A DNA stretch of 64,000 nucleotides from Ignavibacteriota bacterium (lineage in GTDB: Bacteria; Bacteroidota; Ignavibacteria; Palsa-1295), in assembly GCA_963787835.1 (NCBI GenBank), contig CAWBEI010000002.1:1440001-1504000 (forward strand), in the 5' to 3' direction. A model generated the notes under the pieces. The model was not told the DNA's origin and did no database searches. It saw only the letters and a program-made list of their open reading frames with translations. Of the stretch, positions 39,088 to 62,301 are shown piece after piece. The position numbers and the translations under genes were made by a program. How positions within the stretch are numbered: position 1 is the first letter of the stretch; every line of letters starts with the position of its first letter.

Positions 39088-39576
39088 TTAAAAGAAATAA
39101 TCCGCCCCAAGGCGAAAGACGAACCAGCCGATGTTCGATGATGGGGTGAAAAAGGCATTGAGAATATCGACATCGCCGTGAACGTTGATCTGGCGATTGA
39201 TGCAAAAAGCTGCTCCGCCGCCCAGGAAGAGCCCGATCTGTGTACTGCCGGGCTGCGAGTATAGTTGGATCCCCCCTTGTGCGAACGGACTTACGAACCA
39301 TTGATAGAGATAGCGCACAAATGGAGCGATCAAAAACGAGCCAACCGATGTGGAAAATGAGGCGGAAAGTTCGGAGCCGATCTGAAGGTTCGAGCTGGAA
39401 TCGAGTGCGTAGGTGACTTCGAATCCGCTTGGAAGGAAATTTGTGACGCCATAAATACCAACCCCAAACTGCTCGGCTGGAGGGTCGTTCTTTTGTGCAT
39501 GAGCCGAGGAAACGGCGATAGCCATCAGCGCTGCCAAAGTTCCGAACTTACGAAGATAATGAATAAATGCGGTCAT
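39088..39576 (-). CDS. Small outer-membrane beta-barrel protein
   Basis: Signal peptide AHA-QKNDPP, alternating beta strands, terminal YFF; paralog of the next gene. Confidence 0.7.
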   Translation of the reverse strand: MTAFIHYLRKFGTLAALMAIAVSSAHAQKNDPPAEQFGVGIYGVTNFLPSGFEVTYALDSSSNLQIGSELSASFSTSVGSFLIAPFVRYLYQWFVSPFAQGGIQLYSQPGSTQIGLFLGGGAAFCINRQINVHGDVDILNAFFTPSSNIGWFVFRLGADYFF

Positions 39577-39634
39577 GAAAAATTCCTCTGATCATACTTA
39601 TGATAGCACCAAAAGCATGGTTATTCGAGTTTGT

Positions 39635-40132
39635 CTAAAAGAACCAATCGGCGTCGGCAGGGATAAAGCTCCAGCCAAATGTCGTCGAGGATGGGCTGAA
39701 ATAGACATTCAGAATATCCACTCCGGCGTGTAAAGCGATCTCATGGTTAATGTTGTAGGCTACACCGGCGCCTAAAAATACGCCGGTGTTTGAAGTGCTT
39801 CCAGTCGAGAGCACTTGCAGGCCGCCCTGGATGAACGGGCTCACGGTCGTCGGGATGAGATATCGAGCAAATGGGCCGAACAAGATGGTCGTTACGCTCG
39901 CCCCGCCGCTGCTGGTAACAGAAAGCGATAGTTCCGATCCCACCTGAATATTCTGATTAATGGCATAGACGGCTTCAAGCCCACTCGGAGTAGAGGAGCG
40001 TATGGAATAAACGCCCACCCCGAATTGCCCCGATGGCGGATCGTTCTTTTGCGCGTGTACTGGCGAAATAGTAAAAACCGTCAAGGATAAAAATGCAACA
40101 CAGAAGCCAAGATTCTTAGGAAATGTGATCAT
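39635..40132 (-). CDS. Small outer-membrane beta-barrel protein
   Basis: VHA-QKNDPP, QFGVGVY, terminal WFF. Confidence 0.7.
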   Translation of the reverse strand: MITFPKNLGFCVAFLSLTVFTISPVHAQKNDPPSGQFGVGVYSIRSSTPSGLEAVYAINQNIQVGSELSLSVTSSGGASVTTILFGPFARYLIPTTVSPFIQGGLQVLSTGSTSNTGVFLGAGVAYNINHEIALHAGVDILNVYFSPSSTTFGWSFIPADADWFF

Positions 40133-40384
40133 AGCGAAGCATGAATGATAAAAATGAAGGAAAACAATACTTTGAAGTAAACACCGTTTGAAATAAACAT
40201 ATAATCATCAACAGAGCATTCCTAAAATACAACGATTGCCCAAATCCCCAAAAAATCTCAAGAATCTCGGTCCGGGTTTTAGAGTATCGAACGATATAAT
40301 GATTATAATTCAACACCCTGGTGTTTTTGGGATGCAAATTCTTTCACCGGGGTGATCATTTAACAACTAATCAGGTACATTACA

Positions 40385-40726
40385 ATGAACGAATTCGTAT
40401 TTCTCTATCGTGGCGGAATGAGCGACGGCACGCAGCCCTCGCCCGCAGAAATGGAAGCAATTATGCAGCGCTGGCAGGGGTGGTTTGCAAAGCTTGGTGA
40501 AGAAGGCAAGCTTAAGGAATGGGGCGCCCCGCTTCAACGTGAAGGCAAACTGGTTGCCGCTGGCGGTTCCATTACGGATGGCCCATTCTCGGAAGGCAAG
40601 GAAGTCATCGGTGGATATTCCATCATAAAGGCGGCAGATCTCGCCGAGGCCGCGGCCATCGCGAAGGGATGTCCCGCCCTTGAAACCGGTGGCAGAGTGG
40701 AAGTGCGTCCCGTCGCACCGATGTGA
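40385..40726 (+). CDS. YciI/DGPF-domain protein
   Basis: TDGPFSEGKEVIGGY, CP...GGRVEVRP. Confidence 0.92.
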   Translation: MNEFVFLYRGGMSDGTQPSPAEMEAIMQRWQGWFAKLGEEGKLKEWGAPLQREGKLVAAGGSITDGPFSEGKEVIGGYSIIKAADLAEAAAIAKGCPALETGGRVEVRPVAPM

Positions 40727-40811
40727 TCCATTCCAATCGTTCGAAAACTCACGCAGCGGAGAATGCAGCGTGAGTTTTCGGCGTTTGTTTTGATCCACGA
40801 ATCATAACAAC

Positions 40812-41345
40812 ATGGCAGAAACTATCGGGATCATCGCCAACATCGCCCTCACGCTTTCGGTCGTCATTGCGCTGATATTCGGCATCGCGCAAGTAAAAGC
40901 TGCGGAACGCGACCGCCGCGAGCGCCTCACGCTCGAAACTTTGCGAGTATTCAGCACTCGCGAGTTTTCGGAGCTTATCAATTTCGTGAATACTATCGAG
41001 GTTCCCAAAACACGGGAAGAATTCGCCGCCTTGCCATCCGACCATCAAATAAAACTCATCCACATCGGCCAGCAGATGGAATCCATCGGTATGTTGGTCT
41101 ATGAACACTATATCGAGCTCGATCTCATCGATAAAACGCTGGGGGACTTTGTATCGAACACATGGAACAAATTTAAGCCGATGTTCGAAGACAGCCGCGC
41201 AAAAATTCCCGACCCCTATTTAGCAGAATACAACCAATGGCTCGCCGAACGCATCGAGGAACGCATGAAAAACAATCCTCGCGAACCGTATTATAAAAAT
41301 GCTGGAGGTGCTCGACAACCTCCACCCACGCTTCGCCGACGGTAG
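40812..41345 (+). CDS. Hypothetical protein with N-terminal TM (DUF4760-like)
   Basis: TM helix, ESIGMLVY..YIELD, EYNQWLAE pattern. Confidence 0.6.
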   Translation: MAETIGIIANIALTLSVVIALIFGIAQVKAAERDRRERLTLETLRVFSTREFSELINFVNTIEVPKTREEFAALPSDHQIKLIHIGQQMESIGMLVYEHYIELDLIDKTLGDFVSNTWNKFKPMFEDSRAKIPDPYLAEYNQWLAERIEERMKNNPREPYYKNAGGARQPPPTLRRR

Positions 41346-41460
41346 CATTCCAAACTCCCATTCCTATGCAGCAAAGCGGAATAGGATTGGGCAAGCATCG
41401 CCCGTCCCGAGCCTGTCGAGGGATGCGCGGCGTGGTTTGCGGGATTGCACCACACTCACC
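41316..41460. repeat. CCCCTCC/DUF559-type palindromic repeat (degenerate copy)
   Basis: Shares GCGGGATTGCACCACACTCAC (41439-41459) with 43333-43353 and GCAAGCATCGCCC with 44690. Confidence 0.75.
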
Positions 41461-41494
41461 GGGACTCCACTTCATTCAAACTTCCAATGTAACG

Positions 41495-41869
41495 ATGGCC
41501 TATAACGAAGCACTTGCAAACCGACTGCGGAACGCGCTGGCACATCTCAAGAATGTCGAAGAAAAGAAAATGATGGGCGGGCTCACGTTCATGGTCAACG
41601 GAAAAATGTGTGTGGGTATTGTAAAAGAGGATCTGATGGTCCGGCTGGATCCTGCTGTGTATGATGCAGCCCTTATGAAAAAAGGCTGCCGCGAAATGAC
41701 CTTCACCGGAAAACCCATGCAAGGTTATGTGTTCGTAAGCCCGGAGGGAATCATATCCGACCGTGATCTCGATTCCTGGATCAAACTCGCGCTCGATTTC
41801 AACACAAAAGCAAAAGCCGCCACAAAGAAAATGAAAAAAATTAACTCCCCTCCGATGAAGCGAGTGTAA
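41495..41869 (+). CDS. TfoX N-terminal domain protein
   Basis: MAYNEALANRLR, EKKMMGGLTFMVNGKMC, GKPMQGYVFV. Confidence 0.88.
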   Translation: MAYNEALANRLRNALAHLKNVEEKKMMGGLTFMVNGKMCVGIVKEDLMVRLDPAVYDAALMKKGCREMTFTGKPMQGYVFVSPEGIISDRDLDSWIKLALDFNTKAKAATKKMKKINSPPMKRV

Positions 41870-41880
41870 AGATTGTTTAA

Positions 41881-42050
41881 ACTACCCCTCACCCAGTTTC
41901 GCTGCGCGAACCATCCCTCTCCCCACGAAGTGGGGAGAGGGACATTCCGCCGCAGGCGGAATCGGGTGAGGGGGAGTTTCACAGGCCCATCGTACCCACC
42001 ACCATCAGCCATATCCTACTTCGCTCCACTGCATAGCACGGGAGCAACGT
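41881..42050. repeat. CCCCTCACCC...CCCTCTCCCC/GGGGAGAGGG...GGGTGAGGGG palindrome plus a degenerate copy
   Basis: Nested inverted repeats 41885-41974, followed by a degenerate accaccatcagcc...tcctac copy. Confidence 0.75.
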
Positions 42051-42083
42051 CAGGAAAATAAAATAGAAATCAGTCACAAACCT

Positions 42084-42503
42084 ATGCCGATCAGCTATCT
42101 TTTTCTTCTTCTCTTCCCATTCGCGCTTGTTACACAGAATTATCAGCTCACGGTAACGGTAACCTCGCTTCATAGCAATGACGGCGTTGTGTTTGTTAGT
42201 CTCTATAACTCGGAAGCGGGGTACCCAACCGATCCCAATAAAGCGATCCGAAAGACGCCGGTGAAGATCAAAAACAAAACGGCGGTAGTGACGTTCGATA
42301 GCCTGCCGCCCGGAGTGTATGCCATCGCATGTTACCACGATGAGGATGGGAACGGAAAACTCAATACAAATTTTCTGGGGATACCGACGGAGGGTGTTGG
42401 CGCCTCCAACGATGCAAAGGGATTTATGGGGCCGCCATCCTTCAAAGATGCAAGTTTCTCACTCCGAGCGAACGCGGCGATCGTGATTCACATGAAGTAT
42501 TAG
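42084..42503 (+). CDS. DUF2141 family secreted protein
   Basis: PGVYAIACYHDEDGNGKLNTNFLGIPTEGVGASN, GPPSF. Confidence 0.9.
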   Translation: MPISYLFLLLFPFALVTQNYQLTVTVTSLHSNDGVVFVSLYNSEAGYPTDPNKAIRKTPVKIKNKTAVVTFDSLPPGVYAIACYHDEDGNGKLNTNFLGIPTEGVGASNDAKGFMGPPSFKDASFSLRANAAIVIHMKY

Positions 42504-42606
42504 TTAAACTTCCCATCCTACGATGCGCGGGGTGGTTTCGATCAGATCTCGAGATATTATTAGTAATTTTGCAGATCAGTTCACCATCAACCAAATAAAG
42601 GGCACT

Positions 42607-43116
42607 ATGAGATCATTAGATATGAAGTCGATCCTGTTGGGAATGCTTTTGATGCTGGGCATCGGTGTGGCATTCGGGCTTTCTAAAAAAACAAATAACG
42701 CAACACCACCGGCCGACACCGCGCCAAAGGTGACGGGAATCGGCGGTGTTTTCTTTTATTCGGACGATCCGAAGAAAACGAACGATTGGTACACCAAAAA
42801 TTTAGGGATCGAGATCAATGAATGGGGTTCTTCGAGCTTTGAATTTAGAAATGTAAATAAACCGGAGGACATTGGCTCGCTTCAATGGAAACCGTTCAAA
42901 AAAGCGGAAGATTATTTCTCCCCATCCAAACGGGATTTTATGATCGACTACCGGGTCCAGAATATGGATGGCCTTGTAAGCAAATTCAAACAGAACGGTG
43001 TAACCATCCTTGACACCGTTGCCACGTACGACTTCGGAAAATTTCTCCACATCATGGACGCCGAAGGCAACAAGATCGAACTATGGGAACCCGTTGACCA
43101 TAAAGCGACCAAGTAA
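42607..43116 (+). CDS. VOC/glyoxalase family protein
   Basis: KVTGIGGVFF, WY..NLG, DFGKF..IMDAEGNKIELWEP. Confidence 0.9.
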   Translation: MRSLDMKSILLGMLLMLGIGVAFGLSKKTNNATPPADTAPKVTGIGGVFFYSDDPKKTNDWYTKNLGIEINEWGSSSFEFRNVNKPEDIGSLQWKPFKKAEDYFSPSKRDFMIDYRVQNMDGLVSKFKQNGVTILDTVATYDFGKFLHIMDAEGNKIELWEPVDHKATK

Positions 43117-43139
43117 AAAGCTCCGCCTTCTGTGCTGCA

Positions 43140-43353
43140 GGGCAACCACCCCCCAGCCCCCTCCTATTCCGCTTCGCTGCATAGGATGGGGAGTTCTTGT
43201 ACTCCCCCTCCTACGGAGTAGGAGGGGGCTGGGGGGTGGTCGGCGGGGTTCCACAACACTTAAAATTTACACTCCCCCTCCTATGCAGCTGGCATCGCCC
43301 ACGATGCGCGGAATAGGAGGGGGGGGTGGTTAGCGGGATTGCACCACACTCAC
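43140..43353. repeat. Palindromic repeat cluster on the 5' flank of DUF559
   Basis: ACCACCCCCCAGCCCCCTCCTA...TAGGAGGGGGCTGGGGGGTGGT; 43200-43240 is identical to 43808-43848. Confidence 0.92.
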
Positions 43354-43371
43354 TATTATGTTCTGTGTAAA

Positions 43372-43737
43372 ATGCAAATTCAAAACCATCCCAGCCTGAA
43401 GAAGCGCCGCCGGGAACTCCGGAATCGCCCCACCGATGGCGAGCACTTGCTGTGGTATCAACTGCGCGGCGCAAAACTGGATGGAAGGAAGTTCCGTCGC
43501 CAGCATAGCGTCGGCCTCTACATCCTCGATTTCTATTGCCCGGAAGAGCGCCTCGCGATCGAGCTGGATGGAAACGTCCACGATGAACCCGCACAGCAGG
43601 CGCACGATAAACGCCGAACGGAATATCTGAATGAGAACCGTATCACCGTGCTTCGCTTCCCAAGCGGACAAGCATCGACCAATCCGCAAGCTATCTTAGA
43701 TCAGATTCGGAAGACATGGGCGGGAAGGGAACGATAA
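43372..43737 (+). CDS. DUF559 (Vsr-like) endonuclease domain protein
   Basis: RELRNRPT..EHLLW..LR...GRKFRRQHSVG.YILDFYC....LAIELDGNVH...D..R..YL...ITVLRF. Confidence 0.92.
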   Translation: MQIQNHPSLKKRRRELRNRPTDGEHLLWYQLRGAKLDGRKFRRQHSVGLYILDFYCPEERLAIELDGNVHDEPAQQAHDKRRTEYLNENRITVLRFPSGQASTNPQAILDQIRKTWAGRER

Positions 43738-43751
43738 CTGTTCGCTGCGAG

Positions 43752-43848
43752 GGGCAACCACCCCCCAGCCCCCTCCTATTCGCAAGCTCATCGGAGGGGG
43801 AGTTTACTACTCCCCCTCCTACGGAGTAGGAGGGGGCTGGGGGGTGGT
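43752..43848. repeat. Palindromic repeat on the 3' flank of DUF559
   Basis: Direct repeat of 43140-43240 with the same internal hairpins. Confidence 0.92.
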
Positions 43849-43960
43849 TCCCCCGATGCGCGGGGCTCGGTTCATACCCGGAACGAACACCCCTGCTTCG
43901 GCGTATTCGGAAATGAATCAATTTGATATTCGTTCAACATCTAACACTACTTAAGGAACT

Positions 43961-44620
43961 ATGTTCGTTGGTCACTATGGTGTTTCCTATGCAGCGAGGT
44001 CCCTGGCTCCGAGGGTACCGCTTTGGGTCTTGTTCATTGCGACCCAATGGATGGATGTCGTGTGGTCCGTGTTGGTGTTGCTTGGGATCGAAAAGCTGAA
44101 CATCGTTCCCGGCTTCACGGAGGCGAACGCGCTCGACCTGTACTACATGCCCTATACGCATGGGTTGCCGGGGTCGATCGTGGTATCGCTGATCTTCGGC
44201 CTGATCGTCGCACTGTGTGTTTCGGAACGCCGCATGTTCACGCTATTTCTCGTTGCCGGCGTTAGCTTTTCCCATTGGATCCTCGATCTGATCGTGCATG
44301 TCGCCGACCTGCCGCTGTATGATAATTCCGCTAAAGTTGGATTTGGTCTGTGGCGTCATGTTGCTTTGAGTTTTCCGCTCGAGTTGATCGTGCTCGGTCT
44401 CGGCGCATGGATCTATTCGAGACGGATGACATTCACCAGCGCCAAAGGCGGCTATATCTTTTGGGCCTTCGTGATATTTCTCGGTGTAGTCCAGGTGTAC
44501 GCGAACTTCGGCCCGCCGCCCACATCGCCCACGGCCATGGCGATAAGCGCCCTTGTACTCTATGTGTTGCTTGCCTTCCTCGCAGCCTGGACCGAAAAAA
44601 TGGCAACCCGTCCGCACTAA
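43961..44620 (+). CDS. Membrane protein, metal-dependent hydrolase-like
   Basis: MFVGH, MPYTHGL, SHWILDLIVH motifs. Confidence 0.75.
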   Translation: MFVGHYGVSYAARSLAPRVPLWVLFIATQWMDVVWSVLVLLGIEKLNIVPGFTEANALDLYYMPYTHGLPGSIVVSLIFGLIVALCVSERRMFTLFLVAGVSFSHWILDLIVHVADLPLYDNSAKVGFGLWRHVALSFPLELIVLGLGAWIYSRRMTFTSAKGGYIFWAFVIFLGVVQVYANFGPPPTSPTAMAISALVLYVLLAFLAAWTEKMATRPH

Positions 44621-44766
44621 CTCCCTCTCCTATGGAGAATAGTATTTTTTTCCGTGCTCCCCCTCCTATGAGCTTGCGAATAGGAGGGGGCAAGCATCGC
44701 CCACGATGCGTGGGGGTGGTTGGCGGGATTGCCACGCACTTAAAACCTAAAACTCCCCACTCACTC
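44621..44766. repeat. CCCCTCC/DUF559-type palindromic repeat
   Basis: CTCCCCCTCCTATGAGCTTGCGAATAGGAGGGGG...GGGGGTGGTTGGCGGGATTGC. Confidence 0.8.
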
Positions 44767-44886
44767 CGCGCCCAAACAATGCAGACCCGGAACGAATACC
44801 CCGGTTCCCCTATTTAACGCTGGGCCGCTCAACATTCAAGCATGCGGATGTGGAGAATATGGGAACGAGCGGCGATGTTATTGTAG

Positions 44887-45912
44887 ATGAATGTAGCGCA
44901 AAAAATTAAACTTGACTTAACGGCAGAGATGCAAGCAAAGCCAGAACTGCGCGCGAAGCTCGAAGAGATTCGTAATAAGCAGAAGGTAAAAAGGCCACAC
45001 ACCGTTGCTCAAGTTCACCTTAGACGCTTTACTGGTAGTGATGGAAGACTTTGGGTTCTTGATAAACCCAAGCTTAAAATATTTCCTGCTGGACCGGAGG
45101 CTGTTACAGTTGTAAAAGGTTTTTTTGACACTGAATTTGAAGATCAATTTGAAGATTCCGAACTACCAGCGACCGGCCAATTAATAGAAGAGCTTTTCTG
45201 TGAAATTGAAGCAGAGTATGCGCCAATTTGCGAATCGATTATTCAGCGGGTGCAGAATGGCAACACTGCAGCGTTTAAGAAAGATGAACTATGGAGTCTG
45301 GCCGGATATATTGCAACACAATACATAAGAACGAAAGAGTTCCGAGATTACATGCTTGAGACACATACAACCATGGAGCTCAAAAAAATCCAACTACTAC
45401 ACCCCGAAATAGATGTGACGGATGTAAAATTGGAAATTTCAGATCCAGCAGCTTATCACGTCAAATTAATTGGTGAGTATGGCGTAATTCAAATGCTTCA
45501 TAAAGTGCTAATCGAAAAACATTCTTTGTGTTTGCATCGAACAACGGAACGACACCCATTTTGGACTTCTGACCAAGCAGCAGTAGCAAGTAAAGGCGGG
45601 TTTCTTCGGCGTGGTAATTTTTTCGCTTTTCCGTTGTCCCCTGAACTACTGGTTGCCTTCTATCAATATGGAAGTCACCCGCCAGCTGGTCTTAAAAATG
45701 GTATTTCAACATGGTGCAAACCCGCAAGCGTAAAATTCTTAAATGATCTTCAAGTAAAACGGAGCCACAGACAAGTATATTCAAATCAGAATCGATTCGA
45801 ATCTGCGATTGATCTTTGCGAAAAGATACCTGAACTTCGAAATCCAGACAGACCGCGTGTCAAAGTATCCGAGACTTACGACCGGGTTGGATTTCATTCG
45901 ATTGATTATTAA
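44887..45912 (+). CDS. DUF4238 family protein
   Basis: HTVAQVHLRRF, QYIRTKEFR, FWTSDQ, FPLSPE, N..Q...SHRQVYS; AT-rich. Confidence 0.75.
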   Translation: MNVAQKIKLDLTAEMQAKPELRAKLEEIRNKQKVKRPHTVAQVHLRRFTGSDGRLWVLDKPKLKIFPAGPEAVTVVKGFFDTEFEDQFEDSELPATGQLIEELFCEIEAEYAPICESIIQRVQNGNTAAFKKDELWSLAGYIATQYIRTKEFRDYMLETHTTMELKKIQLLHPEIDVTDVKLEISDPAAYHVKLIGEYGVIQMLHKVLIEKHSLCLHRTTERHPFWTSDQAAVASKGGFLRRGNFFAFPLSPELLVAFYQYGSHPPAGLKNGISTWCKPASVKFLNDLQVKRSHRQVYSNQNRFESAIDLCEKIPELRNPDRPRVKVSETYDRVGFHSIDY

Positions 45913-45934
45913 CACGAATTACGAGCGAATTTAT

Positions 45935-46158
45935 AGTCGCGGAGCGACGGAGTACTCGCAGCCCAGGGTGCAGCGAGCTTGCGAGCGGAACCCTGGGTTC
46001 GCGATACGTTTTAGGTTTCCATAGTCCTGAAAGGACGGAGTAAATCCTAGGCGGCTAACATCGCCCTTTTCAGGGCTAATAATTTTTCAATTGCAATCCG
46101 ACCCATGGTTCCGTTTCGCTTCACCCTGGGCTGCGAGTACTCCGTGCCTCCGGCACTT
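45935..46158. repeat. Composite hairpin element (IS200/IS605-end-like, non-autonomous)
   Basis: 22-bp IR 45949-45970/46122-46143 plus hairpins GTCCTGAAAGGAC, GCCCTTTCAGGGC and GTGCCTCCGGCAC. Confidence 0.7.
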
Positions 46159-46214
46159 GGAGCGGTTTCTCTCGTTGCCGAACTTTTCATTCCTAAAACT
46201 CTCTTTAAATCAGC

Positions 46215-46433
46215 ATGAGCACACTTGAACTGATCGAGGGGAAAGCGAAACGTCTTCCTCGTGAATTGCGGGAGGAAGTGGCGGATTTCACGGATTATCT
46301 CTTGCGGAAATTCGAGCAGAACAGCACATTGGACCGTCAATGGTCTTCGGCTTCCATGCAGAATGCCATTCGCGGATTCGAAGACGATCCCGTCACCTAC
46401 ACGAAGAGCGATGTGAAAGCGAACGGTCTATAG
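46215..46433 (+). CDS. DUF2281 family small protein (orphan antitoxin-like)
   Basis: LPRELREEVADFTDYLLRK. Confidence 0.7.
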   Translation: MSTLELIEGKAKRLPRELREEVADFTDYLLRKFEQNSTLDRQWSSASMQNAIRGFEDDPVTYTKSDVKANGL

Positions 46434-46530
46434 TTTTTTGCGAATTGTGTGCCCAAGCGGTTTGTGTCATCCGTCTCCCCACCCGAACATGTCTTCCACC
46501 TTCTGTTGTTTATTCTAACTTTTTAGTATC

Positions 46531-47811
46531 ATGGGACTTTCCTTCGAGCCGGGCAGTACAGATCACACGCAGATCAATGCTATTGTCGAGCATTTGTTCC
46601 GGCATGAGTATGGCAAGCTGGTTTCCACGCTGGTGCGCGCGGTCGGCATTTCGAAATTAGACGATGTGCAGGATGTTGTGCAGGAGTCCCTCATGGCGGC
46701 GATGACCGGCTGGTCCTTCCGTGGCCTGCCTGAAAATCCGACGGGCTGGCTTATTCAGGTCGCGAAGAACAAGATGGTGGACCTCCAGCGCCACGGTTCC
46801 CGTACTTCACAACGGTTCGTGCCGATGATTCCCGGCATCCACGAGGGCGCGTACGTGTTCGATCTCGATAGGCTCGTCGTGCCGTGGGAGATACAAGATT
46901 CCCAGCTTCGTATGATGTTCGCGTGCTGCCATCCCGGTATTCCCGTGCCCTCACAGATCACGCTCACGCTAAAAGCGCTGTGCGGATTCAGCGTCCGTGA
47001 GATCGCCAACGCATTTCTCACGAAAGAAGACACCATTGAAAAACGCTTAGGGCGTGCGCGGAAGTATTTCAGAGATCATAACGTGGAACTCGAAGCGCCC
47101 GCCGGACGCGCATTGAAATCGCGGAGCGGGGCCGTACTTTCTTCGCTGTATCTGCTATTCAACGAAGGCTACAAGCAAACGGAGAGCGATGGCCTCTTCG
47201 ATCGCGACCTGTGCCTGGAAGCGATCCGCCTTGTGCGCATCATGGCCGAGCATCCCGAAGTCCATTCGCCGGAATCGCTTGCGCTGCTCGCGCTGATGAC
47301 GCTCGTTGCCGCGCGCTTCGATACCCGCACCAACGACCGTGGCGATATCGTGCTGCTCTCCGAACAGGATCGTTCCAAATGGAATCGGGAACTCATAGAT
47401 CAGGGTATGGACTATTTCCGCCGCTCCGAGCCGGATATTCACATGTCCCATTATCATCTCGAAGCGGCCATTCAATCGCTTCACGTCATGGCACCCTCGT
47501 TCGATGCAACAGATTGGCCTGCCATTCTTGGATTGTATAAACGGCTGTATGCGATGCGGCCCAGTCCCGTCGTCGCGATGCACATGTCGGTATCGATGGG
47601 TCAGGTACACGGGCCGGATGCAGCCATCGAATTACTTCAGTCGCAGCCGCTCACGAATTATTATCTCTATCACGCACTCTTGGGCGATGCGTATGTAAAA
47701 ACGAACCGCCTCGACGAAGCCGCCGCCGCATTCCGCCGTGCCATCAAGCTTACGATGAATGCCCGCGAAAAAACGCTGCTCGCAGAACGATTGGCGGGGA
47801 TCGTGGCATGA
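46531..47811 (+). CDS. ECF sigma factor with C-terminal TPR-like extension (ECF42-like)
   Basis: VEHLFRHEYGKL, DSQLRMMFACCHP, LYLLFNEGY, QDRSKW, YHLEAAI, TDWPAI. Confidence 0.9.
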   Translation: MGLSFEPGSTDHTQINAIVEHLFRHEYGKLVSTLVRAVGISKLDDVQDVVQESLMAAMTGWSFRGLPENPTGWLIQVAKNKMVDLQRHGSRTSQRFVPMIPGIHEGAYVFDLDRLVVPWEIQDSQLRMMFACCHPGIPVPSQITLTLKALCGFSVREIANAFLTKEDTIEKRLGRARKYFRDHNVELEAPAGRALKSRSGAVLSSLYLLFNEGYKQTESDGLFDRDLCLEAIRLVRIMAEHPEVHSPESLALLALMTLVAARFDTRTNDRGDIVLLSEQDRSKWNRELIDQGMDYFRRSEPDIHMSHYHLEAAIQSLHVMAPSFDATDWPAILGLYKRLYAMRPSPVVAMHMSVSMGQVHGPDAAIELLQSQPLTNYYLYHALLGDAYVKTNRLDEAAAAFRRAIKLTMNAREKTLLAERLAGIVA

Positions 47812-47827
47812 TATTTCTTTTATCCAT

Positions 47828-47886
47828 GTCATCCTTCGACTTCGCAAGACTCCGCTATCGCTACGTCTTGCTCCGCTCAGGATGAC
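47828..47886. repeat. Half copy of the GTCATCCTGAGCG-type palindromic element
   Basis: ATCCTTCGACT...CTCCGCTCAGGATGAC matches 61041-61095. Confidence 0.8.
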
Positions 47887-47930
47887 AGTATTAAATTACT
47901 CTTCGCTTCTTCGTCGTAAATTTGTGTCAA

Positions 47931-49102: not shown

Positions 49103-49179
49103 CGGCGTGTAGCGCAGCCTGGTAGCGCACTACTTTGGGGTAGTAGGGGTCGTGGGTTCAAATCCCGCCACGCCGACCA
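49103..49179 (+). tRNA. tRNA-Pro(GGG)
   Basis: CGGCGTG/CACGCCG acceptor stem, anticodon arm CTACT-TTGGGGT-AGTAG, GTTCAAATC T-loop, encoded CCA. Confidence 0.96.
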
Positions 49180-50551: not shown

Positions 50552-51079
50552 TTACTTCGAGCGCATGCCCGGACGGTGAGGATTCTTTGAACGCGGCGGT
50601 CCCAGTAATTCTCGGGTAACGATAAAGGTGCGAAGTGCATCTTTATCTAAAGGAATTTGGCGGCGTACCACATCGACTTTCTCGTAATTTTGCATCCCAA
50701 GAGAAGAAACGGGCGTAACGATTTCTTCGACCACTTCGTCATTCACAGGCACGATCTTTTTCTTGCGCTTTGCAGATTCCATCAGCGGACGAATGGCTTC
50801 GGGCGGCTCTTCGATGGCTGGCTGTGAGCGGTCTTGATAAGGAGTTGTCGGAAGAGGAATCGAGCGATCGGCACGAACCGGTTGATTCTCTTCGGCGCTT
50901 ACAGGACCTAAAATATCCGCTGGCCGCTGGCTCATTCGAGAGGGACGAGGTGGGGTGGGCATCGTTGACGATGCGCCCTGCGCGGCAGCATCCTTCATCT
51001 TTTGCGCGCGCATCGCCTTCCTGCGAGCCTGCAAGATGCCCCATCCGATGATGACAATTAAATAAATTACAGTTTTCAT
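50552..51079 (-). CDS. Hypothetical membrane-anchored protein
   Basis: N-terminal TM, Pro-rich linker, C-terminal ELLGPPRS. Confidence 0.7.
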   Translation of the reverse strand: MKTVIYLIVIIGWGILQARRKAMRAQKMKDAAAQGASSTMPTPPRPSRMSQRPADILGPVSAEENQPVRADRSIPLPTTPYQDRSQPAIEEPPEAIRPLMESAKRKKKIVPVNDEVVEEIVTPVSSLGMQNYEKVDVVRRQIPLDKDALRTFIVTRELLGPPRSKNPHRPGMRSK

Positions 51080-52629: not shown

Positions 52630-53112
52630 TCACAATATTCCACCGGTCCATTTTGATAGATCGAACACGGTCGAGCCTTTGAATGGATAATCCTGCCACG
52701 TATCGCAGATCCCCGCACGAACCGGATTATTTAAAATATAGGTGATGAGTTTGGCGAGATCTTCTTGCTCTCGAAGAATATGGTCATAAAAATCTTCTTG
52801 CCATCGAACATCGCTCTGATTTCTTGCAAGCCAGAATCCAGAGTATTGCTTGAACACTCGCATCGCCCCATAAATATCCGATGTGGACTCAAGTCCCGTA
52901 ATAACAACATGCAGATGGTCGGGCATGAAGAGATATACCTCCGATGCACAGTGATACTGTGATAATGCTCGTAATAAATGTTTTTCGTGAATCTCGAACG
53001 TTTCTCTCGTAAGAAAATAATTATGCCGTTGATCAATACACGCTGTAAAGGATGCTCGAACAAATCCTCGATACGTTTCGCGAGGAAGGCGGTGTTTCTT
53101 TTCCTGGATCAT
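52630..53112 (-). mobile_element. REP-associated tyrosine transposase (RAYT, Y1 HUH) no. 1
   Basis: MPDHLH (HUH), WQEDFYDHILR, YILNNPVRAG; flanked by GTAG REPs. Confidence 0.95.
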
Positions 53113-61662: not shown

Positions 61663-62301
61663 TTACAATGCGACGCCGCCCAACTTGGGATGGAGATATG
61701 TCCATGGATAATCGTCCCAATTAGCAACGAGTCCAGCATGAACCGGATTCATCAAAATGTATTCAATGATTCTATCGAACTCACCATCTCGGACAACGTG
61801 ATCGTAGCTCTCGTGTTGCCAGAATGTTCCTGAACGGCCAAGTGCCTTATTGCATTCAAAAGCACTTCTGCCTTTAAGTAACTGCATGATATGCCTCAGA
61901 GATTTCTCCGGGTTGGAGAGCGAGAGTAATACATGAACATGATTTGACATGATAGTGAAACACCAGAGAGTGACATGTCCTTCTCGATCGAGTGAGTGCA
62001 AAGTATCTGCTACGATCCTGGCGGCAAGTGGGTTGCTGAGGACTTTAGATTCTTTTGAGGAATCCAGCATCGTGTCGAATTTCGCGAAATGTTTTTTTCG
62101 TAAGATTGCAATTTCTTCTGGGGTCGATGTTTTAGATTTTGCGGAACTTGTGATTTGTCGCTGTTCCGCTTGAAGACTGTCGAGCACGGATTTTGGTAAT
62201 GAGTTGTGTAAGCGAAAGGTTATGAAAAGGGCGGCATCGGGCGGTGTAAAATGTGGGAGATTCCGGCGATAGGTTGGAGGGTTTTCTTTCCAAATGCTCA
62301 T
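61663..62301 (-). mobile_element. REP-associated tyrosine transposase (RAYT, Y1 HUH) no. 2
   Basis: YRRNLPH, FITFRL, MSNHVH (HUH), FWQHESYDHVVR, YILMNPVHAGL. Confidence 0.95.

Follow-up and report, generated by a model that had tools for sequence, protein, structure and literature searches.

A DUF559 gene framed by inverted, predicted triplex-type repeats in a variable YCII-ECF42 operon of an Ignavibacteriota bacterium

Results

A stretch of 64,000 nucleotides from an Ignavibacteriota genome (contig CAWBEI010000002.1, forward strand, positions 1,440,001 to 1,504,000), called the window in the following, contains a repeat-rich gene array at 40727-46530, between a YCII/DGPF gene and the gene for an ECF42-type sigma factor. 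Within the array, a gene encoding a DUF559 protein is framed by two inverted copies of a palindromic repeat, named family A, to form a cassette of 534 bp. Such cassettes are mobile, the repeats turn over between genomes, and gene and repeat are associated with each other. These observations are probably best explained by an element similar to the REPtrons, made up of a DUF559 gene and triplex-type repeats, which invaded an accessory ECF42 operon and left copies now offering homology for some deletions and swaps. The genome under study (3.57 Mb) is indicated as G000 and its closest relative as G006; the other G and L labels denote genomes and loci of relatives.

The DUF559 cassette

The cassette (43271-43804, + strand) is composed of an A+ copy (43271-43332), the DUF559 gene (43372-43737, +; PF04480, E=3e-29) and an A- copy (43752-43804). 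The encoded protein matches PF04480 at 101 bits, over the cut-off, and the predicted nuclease motif FRRQ..ILDFYC..IELDG..H is intact in its sequence; we take this stretch to be catalytic.

The association between gene and repeat was evaluated on a sample of 101 DUF559 loci, 100 of which gave a match and 84 of which had full flanks. A hairpin within 350 nt was found at 63 of the 84 loci, compared with 8 of 351 control windows; it was located upstream in 43 cases, downstream in 50 and on both sides in 30. As judged from the sequences, the type of repeat follows the DUF559 clade: on a quick tree, built on 101 rows and 116 columns, A-type flanks require 15 changes versus 33.7 when shuffled, and 54 of 55 are found on one side. 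The second DUF559 gene of G000 is framed by a different repeat, family B, so that each of the two genes has its own repeat type. An earlier, sequence-only reading of the window had proposed that the hairpins are possibly processed by the DUF559 nuclease; a tie between repeat and gene is borne out by these data.

Filled and empty sites were detected by comparing related genomes. A cassette present in G006 (C10:1047680-1048201) and in G009 (C22) is replaced in G000 (C2:841110) by a single fused hairpin, similar to the palindromic deletions described for the TMECO repeats in the main text of PMC4666352. Another G009 cassette, on C24, faces an empty and hairpin-free site of G000, on C4. An empty allele of the array itself is provided by a contig of run X7, which joins the VOC gene to the leader of the membrane protein gene via a 20-nt repeat remnant and skips 43117-43868; this contig has 138 nt on its short side and is 95% identical over VOC. 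In runs X2, X6 and X7, any joint that ended in a repeat or had a short side (under 30 nt) was left aside, because any repeat copy could yield it. At locus L150 the cassette follows the TfoX gene, and its DUF559 gene is split by an AAA_21 and DUF4276 pair (L150:3151-5168; PADLOC HEC-01A/B). DUF559 was not found in the arrays of G006 and L152. Gain or loss of cassettes in relatives, suggested as a check by the sequence-only reading, was thus observed for the DUF559 cassette, with breakpoints in the repeats.

Family A in the genome

In the family-A unit, CCCCCTCCT-loop-AGGAGGGGG-GGGGGTGG, a C-rich and a G-rich stem are separated by a loop and followed by a third strand, also rich in G, with T facing A. 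Its predicted fold is the class II intrastrand triplex of the BoxC/PIT/TM repeats. An iterated search with a hidden Markov model (HMM) revealed 46 copies in the genome, 7 in the array and 39 elsewhere. A re-implemented ITxF-like rule (stems of 6-15, loops of 1-6, at most 1 mismatch) is passed in its strict form by 23 of the 46 copies, including 2 of the 7 in the array, and by 38 once loop 1 is allowed to reach 40 nt. The exact TMECO consensus has a single match in G000, on C3, and none in the array. Folding of 43136-43345 gave z=-7.4 against 200 shuffles, and a scan at the Rfam gathering thresholds reported only a tRNA, at 49103-49176.

The seven array copies detected by HMM are contained within 3.4 kb, and all other 3.5-kb windows of the genome hold 3 at most. 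The repeat is genome-wide, yet about 190-fold denser in the array; an equal density in ordinary intergenic regions was what the sequence-only reading had named as an objection to itself. Twelve of 14 congeners also contain its exact core pattern, G006 with 53 and G009 with 49 occurrences among them.

Among the copies outside the array, 27 of 39 lie within open reading frames (ORFs) of 150 aa or more, as defined by a crude ORF caller. One of the in-frame hosts is a PF00589 tyrosine recombinase (G000 C2:371627-372700); other host genes presumably resemble tsaD, coaBC, ppx and gatA. When the repeat loci of G006 were compared to G000, 27 of 33 could be mapped: 17 have no repeat there, 9 retain it and 1 shows a possible remnant. 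The length differences between filled and empty sites are multiples of three in 13 of 15 cases, both exceptions being located outside ORFs. From its dispersal, its turnover between genomes and its frame-keeping insertions, family A behaves as a small mobile element. The in-frame copies in conserved genes (the 27 outside copies) add peptides rich in PPP and GGG. Six tandem family-A half-copies of 38 nt were also observed near a DUF559 cassette of G012, at a contig end (L242:8091-8306).

Repeats within the array

As stated in the sequence-only reading, every spacer from 41345 to 44766 carries a full or decayed family-A copy, in spacers s1 and s3-s6 and, as remnants, in s2; the first (40727-40811) and the last (46434-46530) spacers are repeat-free. 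A degenerate copy containing a nested mini-hairpin is located at 41352-41438 (+), its 5' and 3' halves aligning to separate places in G006. It is followed by a family-B repeat (CCCTCTCCCC-loop-GGGGAGAGGG; 41879-41979), related to A and also flanking the second DUF559 gene (C5:324220-324540), by a degenerate family-A copy at 42006-42042 (-), 76% identical to 43154-43190, and by a deletion remnant at 42507-42538 (+), where G006 has a full copy. An inverted doublet (A-, A+) at 43140-43243 is directly repeated at 43752-43848, with 90% identity over 101 nt. The last two copies are found at 43808-43870 (+), with a degenerate tail, homology to G006 resuming at 43850, and at 44656-44722 (+), with a nested mini-hairpin and an orthologous copy in G006.

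The proposal that a single palindromic family is involved holds for the presence of family A in each of these spacers, but families B and C and the mini-hairpin occur as well. The quoted motifs were found where indicated, GCGGGATTGCACCACACT at 41439 and 43333 and GCATCGCCC at 41395, 43292 and 44694, and the quoted remnant does start at 42507. The two motifs do not represent the core of the palindrome, GCATCGCCC belonging to a separate mini-hairpin of 16 nt and the GCGGGATTG.. stretch being a locally duplicated flank.

The mini-hairpin, GCATCG-N4-CGATGC, has 64 exact-stem copies in the genome. For 180 permuted stems the median was 0, although a second one, GTGACC, reached 40 copies. It nests in family A, in the RAYT-type palindrome described below and in other repeats, forms tandem runs of 18 nt and lies within long ORFs in 21 of the 64 cases. 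The mini-hairpin resembles a mobile element in its own right, of very small size. Its sites include 43292, 44694 and 50959-50974 in the window, and C4:236712-236748 and C2:1647327-1647345 in G000.

The YCII-ECF42 interval in relatives

The sigma gene is present in 13 of 14 congeners. In three relatives (G002, G014 and G020) the YCII and ECF42 genes directly adjoin, with a gap of 8-43 nt, in agreement with the usual adjacency of ECF42 and DGPF genes noted in the sequence-only reading. Intervals in which the scan detected no triplex hairpin were found at 11 loci (G001, G003, G007, G008, G010, G011, G012, G015, G032, L148 and L151) and carry from one to about nine genes, encoding YCII paralogues, AHSA1/SRPBCC, SnoaL, CMD, DUF4760, TfoX, DUF2141 and RelB/YafQ proteins. 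Four of the eight genes of the array therefore recur in repeat-free intervals that follow a conserved ECF42-like promoter, namely DUF4760, TfoX, DUF2141 and, in G032, a glyoxalase; L148, for example, reads YCII-YCII-DUF4760-TfoX-DUF2141-ECF with no hairpin. Gene order also shifts where repeats are missing, DUF2141 preceding DUF4760 in G001 and following it in L148. Repeat-free relatives, in which a conserved order would have spoken against gene capture at the repeats, thus share part of the gene set in no fixed order. Since both gene content and gene order vary in repeat-free intervals, the variation of the interval predates the arrival of the repeats, and the variability of the ECF42 operon is in itself ordinary.

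A predicted ECF42-type promoter (-35 GTCCGG, 16 nt, -10 CGAT), which would drive the operon, is located at 40270-40295 (+). The motif precedes the first YCII gene at 13 of 17 loci, with variants at the other 4. It resembles the RpoE10 promoters of S. meliloti reported in Table 1 of PMC6180224, where the RpoE10 targets are glyoxalase-like and ligand-binding proteins.

In G006 the whole block, from promoter and YCII gene through the array to ECF42, is located at C10:847.6-861.6 kb (L234). It lies between positions that are adjacent in G000 (C2:613789/613831), and the sucC-mltG site of G006 has no block. Homology begins at the -35 box; one neighbor is a transglycosylase gene, and the other we take to be a dapF-like gene. 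The interval between YCII and sigma genes reaches up to 12 kb in G006. At the same site, G014 contains a lone DUF4760 gene (90%).

Rearrangements in and outside the array

The order in G006 is DUF4760, TfoX-b, A, membrane, A, X, TIR, C, half-A, TfoX-a, B, DUF2141, A, VOC-b, A, Arr, VOC-a and more, with two gene blocks swapped relative to G000. Ten homology edges at which genes change neighbors were read by eye from this comparison: five lie in or at family A (41352, 41404, 42517, 43138 and 43850), two at family C (45907 and 46174) and three in neither (41300, 44888 and 46457). Some deletions and reorderings therefore do have their edges inside repeat copies, as the sequence-only reading anticipated. 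The doublet located ahead of DUF559 in G000 connects TfoX-a with VOC in L152. Away from the arrays, DUF4760, VOC-Arr and DUF2281 genes occur in G014, G002 and G006 at loci that no A copy adjoins.

Outside the array, DNA anchors showed 28 of 33 repeat sites of G006 to be collinear, against 168 of 310 control spacers (Fisher p=0.0007, toward more conservation); 36 edge controls were dropped, and the test is biased, as many repeats are intragenic while the controls are spacers. In an ORF-based test, relying on the crude ORF caller, neighboring genes were adjacent for 5 of 12 repeat spacers and 87 of 506 controls or, when both genes had orthologues, for 5 of 7 and 87 of 142. Both tests cover 1.59 Mb of the approximately 3.8 Mb of G006. 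A role of the repeats as genome-wide capture sites was rejected, sites outside the array being no more broken than controls.

In G000, a second accessory cluster (C3:47245-53000) contains genes located in G006 within the ECF42 array: a VOC hybrid, a 124-aa protein 100% identical to that of G006, EamA, a member of the erythromycin esterase family and DUF1801. A rifampin ADP-ribosyltransferase (Arr) gene adjoins VOC genes in G006, G014 and G002 (L031:9299-9745; L235; L238).

Discussion

In the favored explanation, a variable YCII-ECF42 operon would have received the 534-bp cassette, in which inverted triplex repeats of the BoxC type enclose a DUF559 gene. The protein, a predicted Vsr-like PD-(D/E)XK nuclease, likely recognizes the repeats and causes their spread. 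It would nick the folded repeat, and repair or homologous recombination would then copy or remove repeats and cassette, as RAYT does for REPs. Crossovers probably take place now and then at local copies, with neighboring genes deleted or reordered as a result, and the shuffling itself would be due to ordinary recombination at repeats, VOC paralogues and further sequences in common. The array may be repeat-dense because the cassette landed there and because accessory spacers tolerate insertions.

In REPtrons (REP/REPIN-RAYT; PMC3733652, PMC3116915, PMC3479197), one nuclease gene is likewise framed by cognate inverted palindromes, gene variants are repeat-specific, and many singlets and doublets are dispersed without the gene (PMC3733652). 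Unlike them, the enzyme is a Vsr-like PD-(D/E)XK protein (PF04480) and not a Y1 HUH transposase, the repeats have no GTAG/CGTC tags and the cassette itself is found at different sites in congeners. The array element is not a member of the REPtrons, because it has no Y1 transposase.

With the BoxC/PIT/TM repeats (TMECO; Holder et al. 2015, PMC4666352), as presented in the main text of that paper, family A shares the succession of pyrimidine stem, loop, purine stem, short loop and purine third strand, as well as inverted pairs, dispersed copies and inverted-pair deletions leaving a hairpin. It differs in the stem (CCCCCTCCT versus CCCTCNCCC in TMECO), in an often long and structured first loop, in being located mostly inside ORFs, TMECO being always intergenic, and in framing a DUF559 gene, unlike TMECO as described there (PMC4666352). 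The protein is related by its matches to PDB entry 3hrl (E=1.4e-16) and PF04480 to the Vsr/DUF559/I-Bth0305I group (PMC3424549); unlike in this group, no cytosine methylase is adjacent and the gene is flanked by repeats. The operon resembles the ECF42 loci described in PMC8999054 and PMC6180224: a sigma factor with a TPR extension of about 200 aa is encoded downstream of YCII, the neighbors include glyoxalase-like as well as ligand-binding (SRPBCC/AHSA1-like) proteins, and the -35/-10 motif is similar. It differs in that the YCII and sigma genes are separated by target-like and foreign genes, and in that the block from promoter to sigma gene occupies different chromosomal sites in congeners.

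Both the proposed action of DUF559 on its repeats and the origin of the swaps are inferred, and several points weigh against this explanation. The enrichment of edges is not significant, either at family A (5/10, for a spacer cover of 32%, p=0.18) or at any repeat (7/10, p=0.19), and the VOC genes apparently recombined through their own homology, which speaks against a special role of the repeats. The array of G006 has four A copies with no DUF559 gene there, G003 and G004 have 8 and 4 exact repeats and no DUF559 match, and 21 of the 84 DUF559 loci are hairpin-free by the pattern used. No target duplication was seen at the available genome identity of about 75%. The main split of the DUF559 tree has a weak SH-aLRT support of 80%, the sample was seeded with the protein of the array and is biased to its clade, and kin share labels; the empty allele of run X7 is a single contig, at a depth of 5.4.

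A doubtful but possible alternative is passive accumulation, in which the repeats would spread by virtue of their structure, with no enzyme, in a weakly selected region, DUF559 would hitchhike and ordinary recombination would shuffle the genes. The breakpoint edges, not enriched at repeats, fit this, as do the reciprocal VOC hybrids, the order changes in repeat-free arrays such as G001, the repeats of G003 and G004 and the statement, in the main text of PMC4666352, that TMECO showed no link to mobile elements; it leaves unexplained the inverted framing of DUF559 across phyla, the repeat type following the protein clade and the fact that the two DUF559 genes of a single genome are accompanied by two different types. 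At the opposite end, DUF559 might be the missing enzyme of the BoxC/TM repeats, a structure-specific nickase that would read the folded triplex, move its own cassette of about 0.5 kb together with gene-less copies, even in frame into essential genes, and trigger recombination among local copies. This stronger version is unlikely. Knowledge of the BoxC/TM repeats dates back to the 1990s, and they have been tied to genome instability through a mechanism left open; instability of TM loci, with deletions of the palindromic kind, was reported (main text of PMC4666352). That main text, as distinct from its supplements, has no match for 'endonuclease'. In searches judged by titles and the first parts of abstracts, and covering mostly open-access papers without their supplements, no paper linking DUF559 to repeats was found. 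Were the nickase reading true, the ECF42 operon of this sub-lineage would be an actively permuted gene array, and a mobile and shuffling system would be based on a PD-(D/E)XK nuclease, with neither transposase nor integrase. The availability of a candidate cognate nuclease and of filled and empty alleles makes the mechanism testable with a 121-aa protein and an oligonucleotide of 40-60 nt; the locus also offers natural before/after pairs, in-frame insertions in conserved genes and repeats coinciding with operon reordering.

Integron arrays consist of co-oriented small accessory genes separated by palindromes, with variable content, and the array under study shares these three traits. The sequence-only reading saw in it an integron-like cassette array with no integrase, its hairpin repeats acting as sites of gene capture or shuffling. 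A dedicated system of this kind, in which DUF559 would capture or shuffle each gene as a unit of gene plus repeat, is improbable, even if family-A copies begin at or near the stop codons of successive genes in G000, G006, L150 and L152, TfoX-a, VOC and the membrane gene change neighbors inside A copies, and blocks are arranged differently in G000 and G006. These genes are also found with no repeats, both in other arrays and at further loci, the edges of the DUF4238 exchange and of the TfoX-b loss lie outside family A, most repeat sites elsewhere are collinear, most copies are in coding sequence, and no second array of this kind exists in G000. The repeats are neither one per gene, nor confined to the array, nor needed for its variation. 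Capture of the integron kind would have been more striking, but is unsupported. A true integron array, decayed to an attC cluster with no integrase, is hardly credible. TIR, Arr, toxin-antitoxin genes and DUF4238 are kinds of cargo known from integron cassettes, and IntI proteins scoring over the cut-off do occur within the class, in two genomes; the best TIGR02249 (IntI) match in G000, however, scores 86 bits versus a cut-off of 265, none of the 24 other family members searched has IntI at E<=1e-40, and a search limited to the core pattern RYYYAAC..GTTRRRY found 0 attC cores in the array versus 1.1 expected from shuffles. Three PF00589 genes are present in G000, none in the window, and the repeats fit the triplex class. 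Very improbable, finally, is that the repeats are selected regulatory elements (mRNA stabilizers, attenuators or terminators) tuning the ECF42 operon. Strong folding and placement just after stop codons would suit such a role, but the repeats are missing from the operons of most congeners, are frequently inserted in frame in coding sequences and decay rapidly (s1, s3), and PIT/TM elements were without promoter or terminator activity in earlier work cited in the main text of PMC4666352.

Genes and other features of the locus

All eight ORFs announced in the sequence-only reading are confirmed on the + strand between the YCII/DGPF gene (40385-40726, +; PF03795, E=1.8e-14) and the sigma gene (46531-47811, +). 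They are real small genes, and not all of them are unrelated to the sigma factor. Pfam agrees with the labels DUF4760, TfoX_N, DUF2141, Glyoxalase, DUF559 and DUF4238, while DUF2281 is below the cut-off. The DUF4760 gene (40812-41345, +; PF15956) is a recurrent operon member, within the interval in 8 relatives; its final 14 codons or so replace the lost start of TfoX-b, homology to G006 stopping at 41300. It is followed by TfoX-a (41495-41869, +; PF04993), with a family-A remnant at 41843 in its 3' end, by the DUF2141 gene (42084-42503, +), also found in the repeat-free intervals of G001 and L148, and by the VOC/glyoxalase gene (42607-43116, +), an apparent hybrid of two paralogues whose reciprocal hybrid is located at C3:47245-47688 in G000. 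Beyond the cassette, gene 7 (43961-44620, +) encodes a YdjM-like membrane protein, 92% identical in G006; it has no Pfam match, and its Atlas match (0.98) is to clusters with YdjM in 17-26% of members. The sigma protein (426 aa) contains PF04542, PF08281, just below the cut-off, PF20239 (DUF6596) and weak TPR matches; by these domain profiles it shows the ECF42 features, i.e. regions r2 and r4 of sigma70 with a TPR-type C-terminal extension of about 200 aa, and a YCII gene nearby. PADLOC gave no match for DUF4238, DUF4760, the membrane protein and DUF2281, and weak matches only for DUF559.

Separate accessory modules are the likely origin of the right-hand part of the array, made up of a methylase tail, DUF4238 and a RAYT-type palindrome, and of the orphan antitoxin. 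The methylase tail, at 44773-44888 (+), is what remains of the 3' end of an N6/N4 methyltransferase-Mrr fusion gene, intact at C4:132065-133666; a fourth repeat before DUF4238 was rejected, the 120-nt stretch being this tail. The DUF4238 gene (44887-45912, +) has a foreign composition (GC 41.5%, GC3 33%) and has a counterpart, at 31%, in just 1 of 40 relatives; its slot is occupied in G006 by a gene of unknown type and a TIR gene. The long palindrome at 45934-46157 belongs to a different family, C, whose members adjoin Y1/RAYT genes at C4:47.8 kb, C5:292 kb and C2:533 kb. The DUF2281/VapB-like orphan antitoxin gene (46215-46433, +), all of whose matches are below the cut-off, is present at other loci in G006 and G002. 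The Y1/RAYT-like profile PF01797 has 10 matches, none in the array; two lie elsewhere in the window, at 52735-53046 and 61756-62055 (minus).

The methylase-Mrr remnant corresponds to the last 40 codons or so, and it precedes cargo of different, defence-like kinds: HEPN, DUF4238, TIR, an Eco29kI-like restriction-modification system and unknown cargo. Complete genes or tails are located in G000 at C4:132065-133666, C2:121834-123141, C5:292943-293068, C4:49037-49152 and C2:353068-353194, in addition to 44773-44888 of the window, L031 and L032, often beside RAYT genes and family C. The tail possibly marks a loading site for defence genes.

DNA nearly identical to the window is present in soil and peat metagenomes; short contigs of runs X1, X3 and X4 match it almost exactly, but may be its own source, and the RNA run X6 (share 0.07) provides no basis for claims on expression. 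A GTCATCCTGAGC-type hairpin, representing a further repeat family common in metagenome runs, is located 3' of the sigma gene (47831-47887); in G006 such sites are often at variable positions (22/36). Upstream of the promoter, at 39088-40132 (minus), tandem paralogues encoding small beta-barrel proteins are present in 1 to 3 copies among congeners.

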